In this document: in pieces, positions 366 to 10,358 of the stretch
Position numbering within the stretch: position 1 is the first letter of the stretch
How the letters are laid out: the number at the start of each line of letters is the position of its first letter
NCBI RefSeq assembly: GCF_048403405.1
Contig: NZ_CP183129.1
Source: Escherichia coli
Lineage (GTDB): Bacteria; Pseudomonadota; Gammaproteobacteria; Enterobacterales; Enterobacteriaceae
Reading direction: 5' to 3' (one strand)
DNA length: 64,000 nt
Notes under the pieces: model-generated
Told to the model about the DNA's origin: nothing
The model's input: only the letters and a program-made list of their open reading frames with translations
The model's database searches: none
Made by a program: the position numbers and the translations under genes

Positions 366-2030
<1,665 letters not shown>

Positions 2031-2048
2031 CAGGCCAGCACCGATGCC

Positions 2049-2080
2049 TGATAAAACGCTCGCTGCGTTTTATCAGGCTC
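2049..2080. terminator. Hairpin between convergent dtpD and phr (ctgataaaacgctcgctgcgttttatcag)
   Basis: Inverted repeat ctgataaaacg...cgttttatcag immediately after the dtpD stop; its far end overlaps the first codons past the phr stop. Probably a bidirectional terminator. Confidence 0.4.
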
Positions 2081-3491
2081 CTTTCCTCGCTTCTTCGTAC
2101 GCTGCCAGCGTTCGCAGCCTTGCCTCTTTGTGATCAACTATCGGTTGCGGATAATCCAGCGTCACACCTGCTTTCTGCGCCCACTTCCACGGCTCATGCA
2201 CCACTTTCCCTGGCACATCGCGCAGTTCCGGTAGCCACTGGCGGATAAACTCGCCTTCGCGGTCAAATTTCTCGCCCTGGGTTGTCGGGTTAAAAATACG
2301 AAAATACGGCGCTGCATCGGTTCCGGTTGAAGCGGCCCACTGCCAGCCACCGTTATTAGCTGCCAAATCACCATCAATCAGCTGCGACATGAAATATCGC
2401 TCGCCTTCGCGCCAGTCGATCAACAAATCTTTCACCAGAAAACTGGCTGTAATCATCCGTAGCCTGTTATGCATCCAGCCAGTGCTGTTAAGCTGACGCA
2501 TGGCAGCATCGACAATCGGGTATCCCGTTTTGCCTTCCTGCCAGACCTGTAAATGTGCGGGATTGCTCTGCCACTGCACACGATCCGTCCAGGCAATAAA
2601 CGGACAATGTTTACACAACGAGGGGTAATACGTCATCAGATGACGGTAGAACTCGCGCCAGATCAGCTCACTAAGCCAGACACTACCGGCCCCACCGTCC
2701 AGCGCCTGCGGCTGTTCCGCCAACAAGCGATGCAAACACTGGCGAGGCGATAACCCGCCCGTTGCCAGGCTGGCGGACAAACGACTGGTGCCTTCCACTG
2801 CCGGAAAATCTCGTTGTTGCTCATATTCTCCGGCACCGTTCTGGCAAAACTGGCGTAATTGCGCAATCGCCGCTTTTTCTTCCACCGGGAAATGCGCAGT
2901 ATCGAAAGGCTGACGAGGATAATTCAGCGTAATGGATGGCGCGGGATCTATCGATCCACTACTACGTACTTTTGGCGCAGCGACGCACTCCGGCATCCCT
3001 TCCCGCAGCCGTTTCAGCCAGGCGTTTTTAAATGGCGTAAAGACTTTGTACATCTCATGATTGCCAGTCATCACCGCCCCCGGCGGCAGGATCACGCTGT
3101 CGTCAAATCCTTCACACACCACGTTACGCAGCGTTCTCTCAACCTGCGCATCCCGCGCCCGCTCATTCACCTCATACTGATAGTTATAAAACAGATGGGT
3201 AACACGATTTTCCGCGCACACCTGTTTAACTATTTCGACGCTGGCAGCAAAGTCATCCACTTCATGAAACAGCAAAGGAATGCCTTTTTCCGCCAGCGCG
3301 ATTTGTAGCCTATTCAGTTGAGCATTGATAAGTTCAGCCTGACGCGGCGACACATTATGCGCCGCCCACTGGCGTGGTGTAGCGATATACAACGCCAGCA
3401 CGCGTGCAGACGAATAGCGGCAAGCGGCAGCCAGCGCGAGATTATCGTGCTGACGTAAATCCTGGCGAAACCAGACCAGATGGGTAGTCAT
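2073..3491 (-). CDS. phr: Deoxyribodipyrimidine photolyase
   Basis: 472-aa product beginning MTTHLVWFRQDLRQHDNLALAAA with the FAD-binding C-terminal region (WQWAASTGTDAAPYFRIFNP); length and sequence match E. coli photolyase. Confidence 0.95.
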   Translation of the reverse strand: MTTHLVWFRQDLRQHDNLALAAACRYSSARVLALYIATPRQWAAHNVSPRQAELINAQLNRLQIALAEKGIPLLFHEVDDFAASVEIVKQVCAENRVTHLFYNYQYEVNERARDAQVERTLRNVVCEGFDDSVILPPGAVMTGNHEMYKVFTPFKNAWLKRLREGMPECVAAPKVRSSGSIDPAPSITLNYPRQPFDTAHFPVEEKAAIAQLRQFCQNGAGEYEQQRDFPAVEGTSRLSASLATGGLSPRQCLHRLLAEQPQALDGGAGSVWLSELIWREFYRHLMTYYPSLCKHCPFIAWTDRVQWQSNPAHLQVWQEGKTGYPIVDAAMRQLNSTGWMHNRLRMITASFLVKDLLIDWREGERYFMSQLIDGDLAANNGGWQWAASTGTDAAPYFRIFNPTTQGEKFDREGEFIRQWLPELRDVPGKVVHEPWKWAQKAGVTLDYPQPIVDHKEARLRTLAAYEEARKGA

Positions 3492-3997
3492 AAAACTCCT
3501 GAATGGCGCAAGTTAATCACATGCGGCCAAAGTTCGAAATAACGCTGCCCTGAAAGCCAGGCGTCAGGATAAAGCGCCATATAGTGTTTGATACGCATCA
3601 GCGGCGCAAGAAGCGGTTGCTCGCCACGGCGATAACTGTCGATAAGCGCCGCCAGCTGCTGGCGTTCTGTGGAATCAATATGCGGGCGAAAATACCCCTG
3701 AACGTGCATCAAAACGTTGGTGTGATCGCGCGGGTTGGCGGGATGAGAAAGCAAAACAATTACGCGTTGACGGTACTGGCTGTAAAAATCATCCAGATTT
3801 TGCCACTGGTGAATATCAGCCACAAACGGGCCAAGTTTGCGGTATTCCGGCTGGGAATGCGCCAGAAAGACGAGTTTATAGCGGCTGTGATAATCGTTGA
3901 GTGCCCCGCGCGTTAAGCCATGTTCTTTCAGTCGATATAGCTCATAAATCGCGAAGATGCGGATTAGGGTGCTTTCATCAAATCGTTGCTGATTCAT
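3488..3997 (-). CDS. ybgA: DUF1722-family protein YbgA
   Basis: 169-aa ORF directly upstream of phr with a 4-nt ATGA stop/start overlap (3488..3491), the known ybgA-phr operon arrangement. Confidence 0.85.
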   Translation of the reverse strand: MNQQRFDESTLIRIFAIYELYRLKEHGLTRGALNDYHSRYKLVFLAHSQPEYRKLGPFVADIHQWQNLDDFYSQYRQRVIVLLSHPANPRDHTNVLMHVQGYFRPHIDSTERQQLAALIDSYRRGEQPLLAPLMRIKHYMALYPDAWLSGQRYFELWPHVINLRHSGVL

Positions 3998-4057
3998 TAC
4001 TGCTCCTGAGATATTAACAGGAGTAAGTGTAGACGTTGGGAAATGATGTTTGTGAAG

Positions 4058-4906
4058 TTAATCCTGTTGTAGCAGGACAAGATTACGAAAGCGCGCTCCC
4101 CGCAAGGACTGACGCCAGATAGTTTCTGTCCATGGCTGCCCTTTCCATTCAAACGTGAAATCAATAAGTTCATCAGGGACACCGCAAACAATATGAAGAC
4201 GGATTTCTTCTCTGCCGTGACTCTTTTCACTCATTGCGAAACTGTCATGCTCTGGATTATTTAATTCTTTCAGTGGGAATTTTTCCTCAAAGGCTTTATT
4301 AAGCCGTCCCTGATTTCCTTTTACAGCGAATAAATAATCACCGCCCTGTTTTTGTATCTTCTCTGCGATATCTTTCTGGCAACCCATCGCATCAGTTGTG
4401 ATAATTTTTCCTTTAATATCCAACATGTTAAGAAGTTCAGGGATAGCTGTGATCTCATTGGATTTCTCATCCGTCCTGATCTGTCCGATGACCAGACTGT
4501 GCATTGTTGAGAACGCACTAATGACATGAATCGCTCCCCTGCGGCGACTCTTGTCATAAGAATGCCGGAGCGTTTTTCCATCAATTGCAATAACGTCTTT
4601 ATCATCTGAAGAATGGCAGTCACGCATCCAGTTAATAAAGCACTCGTGAAATTTTGCAGGACTGATACAGGATACAACTCTGGCAATGGTATCGTGAACA
4701 GGAATACCATTTTCAAAATCACCATATTGCTTCAAAAAATCGAGATGTGTTTCCCCAAAATCCTCTATATCTTCCCAGCCTTCTGCACCAGAAATAACGG
4801 CACAAATAGTCAACAGTAGAATATCCGACAATTTATGTTCCACTTTCCAGGCTTGTCTGTAATCGGGGATAATAGAAATATGTTCCATCAATTTTTTAAG
4901 TTCCAT
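4058..4906 (-). mobile_element. ISAs1-family (H-repeat-associated) transposase, 3'-truncated
   Basis: 282-aa ORF starting [58 protein letters not shown], the conserved H-repeat/ISAs1 N-terminus. It is shorter than the ~370-aa full-length proteins and its last ~30 residues ([26 protein letters not shown]) read as non-conserved sequence past a deletion breakpoint. Confidence 0.8.
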
Positions 4907-5013
4907 TTTGTTCTCCTTAATTATGTAAAGAGTATTTGATCATGTATACGCAATAAAAAACAGCTTCAGGTAATGAGGAATATCTCAATTTTTAAACATA
5001 AAATGCGAATTAC

Positions 5014-5615
5014 TTAGTACAAAAAGTGTACTTCTGATGATCTTTCCCTGTCCTTGGCACCATCATTTTTTGACGCTTCAAAAATACTACTACAAGTGAG
5101 TTTAGAAAACTCTTTTCCAGATAATTCTCCAGGTTGTAATCCTCCGCCGCCAAAAATCCTACTCCCAGGATTTCCATACCTATTTAGAGCATATGAATAG
5201 CAATTATTTACGGCAAGATAATACGCATCTGAATTTAGTTCTCGATTGAATACTGGAGCAGGTTTATCAATTAAGCCCAGCGGATCAATAGAATAGGTTG
5301 GATGTATGGAAGCATATACATACTGATTCCACCCGCCTTCCAGCCCAATCGGTTCCTGAGTGATATACCGCCCCTGCAGCGGGTCATAATAGCGGTGGCG
5401 GTTGTAATACAGGCCGGACTCCTCATCATACTGCTGCCCCGGCAGACGGATAAGCTGCTGCAGGTGCTGCGGGTTCTCTTCAGTCAGCAGGTTGCCCCAT
5501 TCATCATATTCTGCGCACCATTCTGTTGCCCCGTCAGGGCTGATAAGCGTCAGCGGCAGGCCGCGATAGTCGCAGTGGTAGAGGTGGATTATTCGCAGTG
5601 GTAGAGGTGGATTAT
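5014..5615 (-). pseudogene. Orphan rhs C-terminal fragment (core end plus alternative C-terminal tip), no start codon
   Basis: My minus-strand translation gives an open frame [106 protein letters not shown] followed by a distinct ~85-aa tip ending ...[12 protein letters not shown] and a TAA at 5016..5014. Nucleotides ~5290..5560 are a near-copy of rhsC 6650..6930. The frame contains no Met, which is why the ORF track shows only the antisense ORF 5302..5604. Confidence 0.8.
5561..5613. repeat. Tandem direct repeat, 23-bp unit cgcagtggtagaggtggattatt x2 plus partial third copy
   Basis: Read directly: 5561..5583 and 5584..5606 are identical, followed by cgcagtg. It lies at the upstream boundary of the orphan rhs fragment and corresponds to rhsC sequence near 6908..6930. 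Confidence 0.85.
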
Positions 5616-5706
5616 TCGCAGTGATCTATATGCCAACGTCATCTTATTTTTCATCTACTCCAACGAGTAGACAAGTTTTTTATTAAACCATTTATACCTT
5701 TTACGA

Positions 5707-6210
5707 TTAAATTTTCTTATGTAATAGAGGTGAATAATCTTCCCAAAAATCCATACAAGCTTTACTTGCATAAAAGAATCCAGCGTCTGATTCATAAGAC
5801 ATAAACTGTGCAATAATAGATAGTTGTATATCTGAAAAATTAAAAACAAAATTCAAAAAATCATCGTGATCCCGATACTCAGGACATAAATATTGTTGAA
5901 TAAAATCGGATTCAAAAACCCAAAAATCATTCTTATTAAACAACGAGGCATAAATATACAGAGGGATGTAATAGCAGAATACTTTCTCAGGGAGGAATGT
6001 AATTCCTAACTCTAAAGCATAAGAGTCATCCTTTATTTTAAAATTGTTGGCTATTTCATTCCATTGTTTCTTTTGGAAAAAATTATATACAATATCCAGT
6101 TCCTCCAGCCCTGTAATATCATTTGAAATATGAGGTAATGGCTGGCATGGGAAATGAATCATAAGTTCATCATAGACTGCACTCTCGTTAGAGAAAATTA
6201 TTTTTTTCAT
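5707..6210 (-). CDS. Putative RhsC-associated immunity protein (RhsI-type)
   Basis: AT-rich ORF directly downstream of rhsC. The ATG at 6210..6208 ([20 protein letters not shown]...) overlaps the rhsC TGA (6209..6207) in an ATGA arrangement. The track start at 6228 is a TTG extension. No recognisable catalytic motifs; position is typical for an Rhs immunity gene. Confidence 0.7.
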
Positions 6211-9200
6211 TTTATTAAGCCACTGCAATCAGCTGCTGTTTTATATGCTTTATTCTCTTCTTCCATATGGGCCTTATCTCCACCACCAAAGCACTGATTA
6301 TTAATCTGCTTTCTGACCGAAGCGCACGCCAAATTTATCTCGTACCGTCTCAATATTTCTTTTCTCAGCATCTGAGGAGCGCAAGCTCTAGACTGGTTAC
6401 ATAATCTGTTTTTTTCATTTTGTAAGTCACTCAGGTTCTGGGGACTACAGTTACCACCAGGATTTACACCTGACTTATGTTCATCTGTTAATTTGTCGGC
6501 TTCTGGATTAACTTTACGGCCATATTGATCTCTGCGTTGTTGCCCACTTTGGATAACACCACCTGATGAAAATAAACCGCAACTCATCAGTGCTACAACA
6601 CTAAGAATTAACGGATTTAACCCTTGTGGGTCTATCTCTGAGATCGGATTTAACGGATACTGATAAAAATTCCATCCCCCCTTAAGCCCAATCGGATCCT
6701 GAGTGATATACCGCCCCTGCAGCGGGTCATAATAGCGGTGGCGGTTGTAATACAGGCCGGACTCCTCATCATACTGCTGACCCGGCAGGCGGATGAGCTG
6801 CTGCAGCTGATGCGGGTTCTCTTCATTCAGCAGGTTGCCCCATTCATCGTATTCTGCGTACCACGCTGTTGTCCCTTCCGTGCTGACAAGCGCCAGCGGC
6901 AGGCCGCGATGGTCGCAGTGGTACAGGTGGATTTTTCGCGCCGGCGTGTACACCGGGTCCATCTGGTTTTGCATCTGCTCCACCGTCAGGCCGCACGATG
7001 CCAGCCAGCGGCGGCTTTCCTCGCTCACCCGGTCAGTAAGGATTTCACTTTCCAGCCGGTCGAGCATCTGCACCAGCACCGGCGGGAACACCACTCTGCC
7101 ACCGTCTTCGCCGCCGGACTGCTGAAGGGCATCCGCCAGGCTGCGGCGCTGCGTTTTCGCCAGCTCACCGGTGGCGGTTTCAACTCTGATGAGTGGCGTG
7201 AAGCTCCCCGGCTGATAAACCGTCTGGATGCGGGTTCTGTCGTTCTGTATTGTGGTCAGCCGGTCGCCGTCCCAGCCGTACCAGGTCACTTCCGGTTTCC
7301 GTGACAGCGACATCCAGCCCGTCAGGTCCCGTTCACGCCGCCATACCCGTTTTGCCACCCTGCGGCCCAGCGGGTCGTAAAGATAGCGACTTTCGACCAG
7401 CGGCTCTGCATATTGTGTCCGCGTGTAGTGCACCAGCCGGTGCCGGCTGTCGTAATGATACCGGTGAGTCCGCTCATCATCCGTGCGGATAACCCCTTCC
7501 GGGATGAGGTCGGTTTTCTCTGTCAGCCTGCCGTGACGGTCATACCGGTAAAGATAGTGCGCGTCACGGGCGATACGGTTATCCGGCCACATGCTGAGGG
7601 TGCTGTCCGGGTGCAGCTCCGGGTCGGGCAGGCGGTTGCCTGCCGGGTCCGTGGCATACGGGATGCGGATATCCAGATTCGCTGCGGTGGTGTGGACGCC
7701 GGTCAGCCTGCCGGTGTCGCTGTAGCTGTAACTCCGGGTCTGGCGCGGGCTGCTGATGCGGATGAGTTCGCCGTTGTCGTTCCAGGTGTAATCGCGGTCA
7801 TACTGCAGGCTGTTCAGGTGCTGGCTCTGTAACTGCCCGGCAGAGGTGTAAGCGGTGGTGAGTTCATAACGGCCGAAGCTGCGCAGCGTTTCCCGGTGCA
7901 GGCGGTCGCGGGTGAAATCCACCAGCGGTGTGTCGCCGAGTTTCATGCCTGACAGCCAGCCGCTGCCGTAGGTCAGCCATTCCACGGCGGGCAGGCTGTC
8001 CGGTATACAGCGGTTCGCCAGTCCCTGCGCGTTGTACGCATGTCTGGTTTCATGCTGCCAGAGCAGTGCTTCCGTCTGCGGGTGATGCACCGTCTGGCGC
8101 TCACCGGTCAGGCGGCCTTTCTCATCATACCCGTAATGCACCGTCACCCGGTGGCCTTCGCTGAGATGGCTGATGCCTGTCAGCCAGCCGCGTTCGTCAT
8201 ACTGCCACTGCTCTGCAGGTTCACCCTTCACGGTGCGGTGAGTGAGGCGGTCTGCTTCGTCATAGTGCCAGTGGGTGACCAGCCCCTCATCCTCGCTGCG
8301 GATAAGTTTACCGGTCAGGTCGTGGTGATAACGCTGTGTGCGGCCGTCAAAGCCGGTTTCCTGTATCAGCCGGTCAAGTACATCGTAACGGAAGGTGGTG
8401 TGGCTGCCGTTTTCACTGGTCAGGCGGATGACCCGCCCGGCAGCATCGTATTCCATACTGCGCGTCAGACCGCCCTGCGTGGTACGAACGGGCTTTCCCC
8501 ACGCATCGTACTGTGTCCCGTTTCTGCTGCCGTCCGGGGCAATGACGGCGGTCAGGTCACCGGCGGCGTTGTATTCATACCGCGTTTCATGGCCCTGCGT
8601 GTCTTTCACCGCAATTAACTGTCCACGGCTGTCGTATGCGCGGTACTGACTCAGCCCTTCCTCGCGGTGCACCGCCGTCACCTGACCAAAACGGTCATGG
8701 TCATAACGGGTTACATAACCGGAACAGTCAGTGACGGTCAGCAACTGACCGTAACGGCTCCATGTCATGGTTTTCCGGCTGCCGGTGGCATCTTCCGTTG
8801 CGCAGGGTAAGTCACTGTGTGGATTATCATAACGGTAGCGGGTGATATCGCCGTTGTGTGCGGTTTCCTGAATCAGACGGCCGGATTCATCATATTTGCG
8901 GCGCAACTCCAGCCCGTCAGTCCCGGTGGCTGACGTTAACTGGTTGTGGTGGTTATAGTAAAATGCCGATGCCCTGCCATCCGGTGTGGTGATGCGCGTG
9001 ATGAGTCCCGTCACCACATCCGGGCTGTACTCAGTCGTCCGGCCTGCGGCATCCGTCTGTGCCTTAAGCCCGCCCACCGCGTCAAACTGACTCTGCGTGA
9101 CGCTGCCGTCCGCGTGTTCCTTTTTCACCACCCGCTTCAGCCCGCCTTCGCCCTGCGTGTGCAGCACTTCACGGCGGTCCAGACTGTCGGTGATGGTGAT

Positions 9201-10358
9201 GCGGTCTTTCTCATACTGATACGTGTAGCTTAAGCCTGCCGGGTTTAGCTGTTCTGTCACCCGCCCGTCGCTGTCGTAACGGTAACGGATATCCGGCCGG
9301 CCCGTGTGACGGTGCGCCACCATCCGGCCCCGGTATTTATCATCGTAAGTAAAGCTGCGCACCTGTGTATTGCTGCGGTCATACACCGCCGCCAGTTCGC
9401 CGCGTGGCGTCCAGCCATAGCGCACCAGCGGCGCGGCAGGTAAATTCTCCGGGTATTCCGGGTCGTGCGTCAGCCACACGGCAGACAGACGGATGCCGTT
9501 GTCCCGGCCATATTCGGTGTAACCCGGCAGGGTATCAGGAAAAACGGACGGTTCCGTCCCGCCGGAAATGGCCTGCTGCCGGGCTTCTTCTGCCCGCTGC
9601 GCCTGCGTGGTCAGTACCAGCCGGAAGTGACGCCCGGCACCATCCGTCACGCCGGTGATTTCGCCGCTGAATTCGCCGCCAGCCTCACGGTGAAACGTCT
9701 GTGTGCGCCCGAAGCGGTCCACCAGCCCGGTCAGTACCCGGTACGGCGGCAGCGGCGCGGGCAGCACCTCATCCGCCTCCGGCACCCGCTCACACCAGCC
9801 GAGTACCCACCACGGCCCCTGCGGACTGTTTGTCGCCAGATAACGATGCGGACTCAGGCGAAGCTCTTCCGGCAGCGCCTGCCAGAGTGCGGCCAGCCGG
9901 TGACCTTCATCCAGTTTCGCCACGCCGCCGCGCACCAGCCAGAGTGACTCGCTGCGGCTGTAACCGTCCTCACCGGGAAACAGGTGCTCAAAATACAGGC
10001 TTCTGCCGCCGTTATCACTGAGTGTCAGTGTGTTATCGCGCAGCTGTAAGCGGATATCCGCAGGCATTTTCCAGCCGGGGCCGAGGCTCCCCACCGGCGC
10101 GGGCGTTTTTGTCCGGTAACTGCTGTAGGTGCGGGAGAGGATGAACGGCAGCGGGCCGGGCAGGGCAAGGTCGGTTTCGCCGGGAAGGACCTTCGCACCG
10201 AGCAGCGGATTGACCGGATGGCCGGACGTCACCCCGCCGGGGCACACCGAACAGGCCACGCCGGTGGGGGCACCAATACGTACCCCGGCTGAACCCTGAA
10301 CAATGCTACCGCCATACTGCGTCATGTCGCCCTGACGCGCCGCCGGTTTTCCGCTCAT
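6207..10358 (-). CDS. rhsC: Rhs-family polymorphic toxin (YD-repeat protein) with variable C-terminal tip
   Basis: 1383-aa product; N-terminus [31 protein letters not shown] (PAAR-like), many YD repeats ([33 protein letters not shown]), and the core-ending PxxxxDPxGL region ([32 protein letters not shown]) followed by a ~140-aa divergent tip. Chromosomal context (ybfA, kdp) matches rhsC. Confidence 0.9.

Follow-up and report, generated by a model that had tools for sequence, protein, structure and literature searches.

Displaced Rhs toxin tips are the closest described relatives of the arrangement analyzed here. In the part of Jackson et al. (2009, BMC Genomics 10:584, PMC2935791) that deals with their movement, tips are proposed to travel as circles; homologous recombination of the main core with a core fragment downstream of it would release the circle, and a single homologous crossover would return it to the chromosome. 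The displaced tips treated there and in the corresponding sections of Poole et al. (2011, PMC3150448) share one layout, wherein an rhs gene of full length, together with its immunity gene, is followed by a core 3'-end fragment with a different, AT-rich tip; the same sections of the latter report include a Yersinia example in which the retained core carries in-frame stops. In Salmonella Typhimurium, the core homology of the orphan is a recombination substrate with the main gene, and orphan tips can be expressed from internal starts (Starsta et al. 2020, PMC7043789, which cites earlier work on orphan mobilization). The feature of concern here, a 23-bp stretch of core sequence duplicated in tandem where such a fragment has its 5' edge, does not appear in the parts of PMC2935791 and PMC3150448 covered by a targeted look.

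The stretch of DNA that we analyzed, hereafter the window, is 64 kb long and comprises the Escherichia coli rhsC locus in inverted orientation, with all of the relevant features on the minus strand. From left to right, dtpD (549 to 2030, plus strand) is followed by phrB and ybgA, while ybfA and kdpFA lie to the right of the main rhs gene. Read along the minus strand, the order is main rhs gene, immunity gene, an 83-nt spacer, array, orphan rhs fragment, and ISAs1. The main rhs gene (6207 to 10358), annotated as an "RHS element core protein," occupies the rhsC position and is full length, encoding 1,383 amino acids with an Ntox16 C-terminal toxin (Pfam Ntox16, 47.8 bits versus a cutoff of 25). 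The immunity-type gene behind it (5707 to 6210) encodes a 167-amino-acid protein annotated as hypothetical (WP_000720081.1), with a weak DUF6714 match (24.4 bits, below the cutoff of 27); homologs of this protein sit behind Ntox16 Rhs tips in Citrobacter and Enterobacter, and further homologs are named from Salmonella and Lelliottia. Between its stop codon and the core-like sequence lies the noncoding tail of the Ntox16/immunity cassette (5666 to 5706), followed by a stub, AT-rich and decayed, that forms the 5' part of the orphan core fragment (5624 to 5665; 46 nt if CACT of the first repeat unit is included), the tandem array with its period of 23 (5570 to 5623), the E. coli-like part of the core fragment from the D-Y-R-G-L-P codons to the DPLGL motif region (5326 to 5569), and the truncated remnant of a displaced toxin tip, CT2 (5051 to 5325). 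An ISAs1-family (H-repeat, ybfD-like) transposase pseudogene and element end (4139 to 5050, minus strand, by annotation in identical loci) complete the arrangement, and the element end itself (4950 to 5051) matches ISAs1 contexts in thousands of genomes.

We take the rhsC element of E. coli K-12 to carry a downstream orphan, ybfO, together with H-repeat/ISAs1 sequences (ybfD, ybfL), and the order ybfA-rhs-...-ybfD-ybgA-phrB-dtpD is confirmed by annotation here. The window resembles K-12 in the site, between ybfA/kdp and ybgA/phrB, and in the H-repeat (ISAs1) that adjoins the orphan region, but it has another toxin tip, immunity gene, and orphan, and K-12 genomes match only the generic core, up to position 5596.

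The orphan (5051 to 5665, minus strand) adjoins the main rhs and immunity genes in the layout of a displaced rhs C-terminal fragment, being a core 3'-end fragment with a DPxGL-type motif followed by a unique variable tip. Over 5326 to 5596, which takes in the E. coli-like part and the repeat unit next to it, its identity to the main core of the window is 91%. Its tip, moreover, is found on a full-length gene: strain VTB96933v (L003, NZ_CP178659.1, 5419 to 9953) carries a single, 1,391-amino-acid, full-length Rhs at the same ybfA/ybgA site, the C-terminal tip of which is 100% identical to the orphan over 5051 to 5352. Between 5353 and 5596 the two differ by 17 mismatches, and they are identical from 5352 downstream. 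This strain has its own 124-amino-acid immunity gene, neither orphan nor ISAs1, and the repeat unit in single copy within its core; the tip that it shares with the orphan has no Pfam match. VTB96933v represents the predisplacement state, with the layout that should precede displacement of the old tip by the Ntox16 cassette.

In contrast to the displaced tips described previously, the orphan of the window has lost part of its tip to ISAs1 and lacks an immunity gene: the ISAs1 joint at 5050/5051 cuts the tip, and both its last 66 amino acids and the cognate, VTB96933v-type immunity gene of 124 amino acids are absent. Like the retained Yersinia core covered in PMC3150448, it contains in-frame stops. 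The Salmonella orphan (PMC7043789) is intact and functional, possesses an immunity gene, and has no tandem repeat, whereas that of the window is a truncated relic. The annotation pipeline PGAP flags the orphan open reading frame ("RHS repeat-associated core domain") as a pseudogene in all alleles. Because the N-terminal shell is absent, an in-frame TAG is present, the tip is cut by ISAs1, and no immunity gene follows, we regard the orphan as dead; it is a degraded, nonfunctional relic and not an intact toxin/immunity module.

It is at the 5' edge of this dead orphan that the array lies, and we consider it highly probable that it is a neutral 23-bp tandem duplication of Rhs core sequence with a variable copy number, that is, a small variable-number tandem repeat (VNTR). 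On the plus strand, the 23-mer CGCAGTGGTAGAGGTGGATTATT occurs in exactly two tandem copies (5571 to 5593 and 5594 to 5616), the second of which is followed by a partial copy, cgcagtg (5617 to 5623), while the base preceding the first copy also belongs to the period. Tandem Repeats Finder reports 5570 to 5623 with a period of 23, 2.3 copies, 100% matches, and a score of 108, making this the sole tandem array with a score of at least 60 in the window. Shuffled windows yield 0.00 expected 23-mer matches, even with 3 mismatches allowed, and the duplication is therefore not due to chance. An initial, sequence-only reading of this stretch had described a perfect 23-bp tandem duplication with a partial third copy; the two copies and 7-nt partial found here bear out that description, but its coordinates, 5561 to 5613, were about 10 bp too low. 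On the minus strand, unit 1, CACTGCGAATAATCCACCTCTAC (5623 to 5601), is followed by the identical unit 2 (5600 to 5578) and by the partial unit CACTGCGA (5577 to 5570), which continues into the native core sequence CTATCGCGG. In its context, the array thus reads GGCATATAGAT, then CACTGCGAATAATCCACCTCTAC, CACTGCGAATAATCCACCTCTAC, CACTGCGA, and CTATCGCGGCCTGCCG.

The unit encodes (R)-I-I-H-L-Y-H-C-(D), a conserved stretch of the Rhs core. The main gene of the window encodes R-K-I-H-L-Y-H-C-D by GCGAAAAATCCACCTGTACCACTGCGAC, which matches the unit at 21 of 23 positions and is present in a single copy. This counterpart, the K-I-H-L-Y-H-C-encoding stretch of the minus strand, lies at 6914 to 6936 (plus strand, CGCAGTGGTACAGGTGGATTTTT), where both units of the array align with 21/23 identity. 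Such a match argues that the repeat is duplicated Rhs core coding sequence and not foreign filler. In a megablast search with positions 5350 to 5850 as the query, the high-identity match to thousands of E. coli rhs cores stops at 5596, within the array; at this sensitivity, the earlier statement that the repeat lies where the homology of the orphan to rhsC begins is correct.

The locus, defined by the 3' end of the immunity gene, the spacer, the array, and the orphan, is present in 242 to 243 of 5,426 complete E. coli genomes (4.5%). Alleles with one, two, and three full units occur among the carriers, so that the variation in copy number between strains that the initial reading had proposed to look for does exist. 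At an identity of at least 99%, 130 genomes match the two-unit query and 113 match the one-unit query, corresponding to approximately 54% and 45% of carriers, respectively, with counts that are uncertain by a few genomes, as BLAST splits alignments over the repeat; three-unit alleles are not countable by a short three-unit query, which returns overlapping pieces and places two-unit loci at the top. Across a spread sample of 58 loci, spans of 283, 306, and 329 bp, corresponding to one, two, and three units, were recorded for 27, 30, and 1 genomes, respectively. M2021-10044802/2-E, for example, differs only in having a single full unit, LH85-a carries three of them, and four metagenome contigs have one, one, two, and one.

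An assembly or sequencing artifact is a candidate that we rejected, since some 130 complete genomes, independent of one another, carry the two-unit allele, as does one metagenome contig. An array of 54 bp is shorter than any read, and each allele recurs in many independent complete genomes as well as in metagenome contigs, so that the probability left for an artifact is negligible.

Another reading would make the array a conserved element regular to rhs loci, such as a recombination site, a small RNA, or a protein-binding repeat. The stretch coding for IHLYHCD is indeed an island that is nearly invariant in rhs cores across several genera, which is what such an element would lead one to expect. 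However, the other E. coli rhs cores, with about 19,700 matching places spread over 3,885 genomes, can be aligned no further than 5596 and have no tandem copy, the main core of the window is likewise single copy, and the array is confined to one orphan in 242 genomes. A search of the region against Rfam matched no family. The initial reading had itself named a repeat universally present in rhs loci as the outcome that would speak against it, and the single-copy cores elsewhere show that the repeat is no such element. The same cores, together with that of the main gene in the window, led us to reject the conserved-element candidate, to which we assign a vanishingly small probability. A distant blastn search of all complete E. 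coli genomes with the spacer and the 3' end of the immunity gene returned the same 243 loci only, at an identity of at least 99%, and these genomes thus contain no family of related cassette tails.

The history of the copy number was followed in 16 loci, compared over 10,370 ungapped flank columns (5.2 kb per side, with the array left out). The one-unit strain PRO_A-1407 shows 0 flank differences from CFSAN061763 and 2 from Ec-U18, both of which have two units. Such identity of flanks between one-unit and two-unit strains argues that the copy number changes recurrently. LH85-a, with its three units, is nested among two-unit strains, differing by 7 to 9 flank positions from 746, 19A14, CFSAN061763, and A1_136 and by 11 from Ec-U18. 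Clade B (7/2, F5446, PEC1013, M2021, YL03, and EBJ003) has one unit throughout. The window represents a third flank background, with 173 to 247 differences from all of the others, yet it has two units, and the two-unit allele is therefore found on two flank backgrounds that are approximately 225 differences apart. Taken together, these haplotypes would require at least three or four independent unit changes, which would include a probable contraction in PRO_A-1407 and an expansion in LH85-a. We infer the directions of these changes, because they are drawn from 16 local haplotypes of about 10 kb in which the rhs core of the flanks is itself mosaic. On these local haplotypes, the copy number appears to be homoplastic and recurrently changing.

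What lies upstream of the array bears directly on its origin. The 46 nt that end with the CACT of unit 1 are 57% to 65% identical to three rhs cores, which are 74% to 78% identical to each other. The GC content of this stub is 37%, versus 52% to 65% in rhs cores, and 12 of its 16 private changes are from GC to AT. Its ungapped collinear match (29/57) is 4.9 standard deviations above shuffles (P = 2e-5), and the collinear offset is tied for best with one other among 4,194 offsets along the main gene. In the one-unit frame, moreover, the 23-letter translation of the stub is collinear with a core stretch of 24 letters. The homology is modest, but these data suggest that the stub is a diverged, AT-biased core homolog, with core-like sequence running 42 to 46 nt upstream of the array. 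The array lies 42 nt within the orphan core fragment, where the decayed stub gives way to E. coli-like core, and from the array onward the core homology is of high identity (87% to 91%).

The metagenome contig L018 provides a related locus for comparison. Its immunity gene is 82% identical to that of the window and is followed, after the stop codon, by the same noncoding tail, which meets a GC-rich core fragment at the same point. The downstream tip of L018 is different, and its unit is single copy, with no duplication. The joint common to the window and L018 places the junction between cassette tail and core fragment at about 5665/5666 and suggests that this joint is old and travels with the cassette.

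The initial reading had offered two origins for the repeat, a slipped-strand event or an illegitimate-recombination scar marking the displacement breakpoint. In the latter case, the Ntox16/immunity cassette would have displaced the old tip by a one-time illegitimate (microhomology-mediated) recombination, and the array would mark the breakpoint between foreign and core sequence. The AT-rich sequence upstream, which is like that of the cassette, and the start of high-identity E. coli core homology inside the array at 5596 are both in keeping with such a scar. Nevertheless, the unit is itself part of the core, the one-unit allele follows the core collinearly and contains no additional sequence, and core-like homology continues upstream of the array, which consequently does not lie at a joint of unrelated sequences. 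The tail/core joint at about 5665/5666 is common to L018, which lacks the duplication, and the number of units differs between strains without any flank difference. We therefore consider a one-time scar very unlikely. Its role as a breakpoint is contradicted by the position of the joint, by the core-like sequence upstream, and by the variable copy number, while the slipped-strand alternative agrees with a tandem duplication of variable copy number at the 5' edge of the orphan.

A second locus or a donor with the AT-rich stub was not found among complete E. coli genomes, one genome per species, viral contigs, or metagenome contigs. With one genome per species, a peptide-pattern scan for the immunity protein returned no relative, and an exact-DNA scan for the stub returned no match and hence no donor species; a scan of viral contigs for the unit junction also gave no match. 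Further immunity homologs (L019, L020, L021, L023, L024, L025, and L026) have tails or junctions that differ from those of the window. In L020 (Citrobacter freundii CP092442.2, 6486 to 8200), the orphan after the cassette keeps a much longer core fragment, and in L026 (GCA_018597345.1, with an immunity homolog named from Enterobacter quasimori), an RHS-repeat fragment lies behind the cassette. The orphan fragments of these two loci start at quite different points of the core. Since orphans of other genera start elsewhere in the core, the tail/stub joint of the window is peculiar to a single cassette lineage. This joint is spanned, at 5654 to 5671, by a perfect inverted repeat of 7 bp (TCTACTC GTTG GAGTAGA, minus strand); followed by a run of T on the plus strand, it has a terminator-like score and is predicted to stop antisense transcription. 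L018 has no perfect hairpin at the joint.

The circular-intermediate model, as set out in the relevant part of PMC2935791, predicts a hybrid core fragment, the 5' end of which travels with the cassette, and this is the composition seen in the window. In this scenario, the circle would retain the tail of the cassette together with the core fragment's 5' end, and the inserted orphan would be cassette derived upstream of the crossover and recipient derived downstream of it. The switch from stub to core would then be the 5'-most homologous crossover boundary of a C-terminal displacement via a circular intermediate. Sequence upstream of the 5'-most usable crossover would never be refreshed from a functional core and may for this reason undergo decay from GC to AT. 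The IHLYHCD-coding island would be the first stretch to permit pairing, and the divergence would therefore change abruptly at the unit. The view that the boundary marks how far homologous crossover can reach, rather than an illegitimate joint, is moderately supported, as is the account of the stub as a hitchhiking, never-refreshed arm, for which L018 is the one related locus.

Returning to the array as a neutral duplication of core sequence that varies in copy number, its anatomy suggests how it may have formed. Short tandem duplications and VNTRs arise by misalignment at short direct repeats (replication slippage), and perfect direct repeats of 8 bp are classical substrates for this process. 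The one-unit allele (L002) contains the octamer CACTGCGA twice, with 15 nt between the two occurrences, i.e., 23 bp apart. Within this octamer, GCGA is intrinsic to the core, and CACT comes from the diverged upstream stub; the main core has CGGCGCGA at the site of the upstream octamer, matching at only 5 of 8 positions. Misalignment of the octamers, through replication slippage or unequal sister-strand exchange, would generate the two-unit allele of the window. The result would be a 31-bp perfect direct repeat, which could undergo recurrent expansion to three units or contraction to one, and a 31-bp direct repeat is expected to change more readily after one slip. Every added unit shifts the reading frame, because 23 is not a multiple of 3. 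The duplication would be tolerated in the orphan but not in main rhs genes, since inserting 23 bp shifts the frame and, of these genes, only the orphan has already lost its function. Whether slippage or unequal recombination, and with or without RecA, the mechanism is inferred from this anatomy.

The array has in common with slippage VNTRs its perfect, high-identity head-to-tail copies, an 8-bp direct repeat at unit spacing, a strain-variable and homoplastic copy number with recurrent changes, and the apparent occurrence of both expansion and contraction. It differs from them in its low copy number (one to three), its long unit (23 bp), and the lack of an attached gene function. With so few copies of so long a unit, its rate of change is probably far below that of classical contingency-locus repeats.

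The reading frames raise one further possibility. The duplication creates a TAA at the unit junction (TGC GAA TAA), which ends the upstream ATG frame after 21 codons, and brings a TAG just upstream of the array (5626 to 5628) into the orphan frame. The initial claim that the repeat places stop codons upstream of the orphan frame is accurate to this extent, but the one-unit allele already has an in-frame TAG (5655 to 5657) directly before the ATG (5652 to 5654), and a stop precedes this ATG in every allele. In the one-unit allele, the ATG opens a 205-amino-acid open reading frame that runs through the orphan into ISAs1-derived sequence. The array could thus be viewed as a heritable frameshift switch, with one unit giving an ATG-fused orphan product of 205 amino acids and two or more units giving 21 codons, the OFF state. 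Apart from the frames themselves, the high frequency of both states, with shares of about 45% and 54% among carriers, and the precedent of Salmonella orphan Rhs tips that undergo internal transcription and translation and function as toxin-antitoxin modules (PMC7043789) are compatible with this view. However, all alleles with at least two units are OFF, so the switch would not be symmetric. The product would lack the last 66 amino acids of the toxin tip, would have an ISAs1-derived end, and would have no immunity gene behind it; the GGAG motif is only 3 nt from the ATG, a promoter scan of 5300 to 6300 found no promoter-like site, and the pseudogene call by PGAP extends to all alleles. The array therefore does not have the properties of a phase-variable contingency locus, for although the frame switches, the reading frame is that of a truncated pseudogene without an immunity partner or promoter-like site. 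Because the tip is truncated and the immunity gene is missing, we hold a switch to be very unlikely, and it would be just as surprising if selection on an internally translated orphan product kept both states common and drove recurrent switching.

The surroundings of the array vary as well. The main rhs gene is 4,152 or 4,140 nt long, owing to a 12-nt indel, when the window is compared with L002, L006 to L009, L011, L013, and L014, and blocks of single-nucleotide polymorphisms within it are mosaic, a pattern that gene conversion among rhs cores typically leaves. An internal stop in F5446 and a frameshift in A1_136 make it a pseudogene in these two strains, and in strain Ch1 the annotated immunity gene is shorter (456 nt). 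In the two-unit strain cS51a (L005, NZ_CM176585.1), an IS2 (6682 to 7910) is inserted in the 3' end of the immunity gene, immediately before the spacer and the array, which shows further, ongoing erosion of the locus. On the metagenome contig L022 (ENA k141_3927), an ISAs1-type end (735 to 883), 87% identical to the window at about 4935 to 5025, lies approximately 20 nt past the stop codon of an immunity gene of 82% identity; ISAs1/H-repeat elements thus target the region behind the Ntox16/immunity cassette repeatedly. The dtpD-phrB-ybgA side of the window (549 to 5050) has many site differences from both of the other flank backgrounds (L001/L002), even though the segment from 5350 to 5850 is 100% identical to clade A, which suggests that the rhs cassette region and its flanks have recombined between lineages.

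In conclusion, the array is a real, well-defined, and ordinary feature at what we take to be an old homologous crossover boundary. Alone, it matters little, being a neutral length polymorphism in a pseudogene, but it could perhaps serve as a rapidly changing marker among E. coli lineages with this arrangement at the rhsC locus. Duplications of this kind would be expected in orphans only, as the same 23-bp slip in a live rhs gene would be a function-destroying frameshift and would be purged. The locus as a whole places side by side the predisplacement state of VTB96933v, the displaced state, and a cassette tail with a decayed core stub that has its counterpart in the related L018, which comes from another sample. 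It thereby supports, at the level of sequence, the movement of Rhs cassettes by homologous crossovers within a hitchhiking core fragment, as opposed to illegitimate joins.
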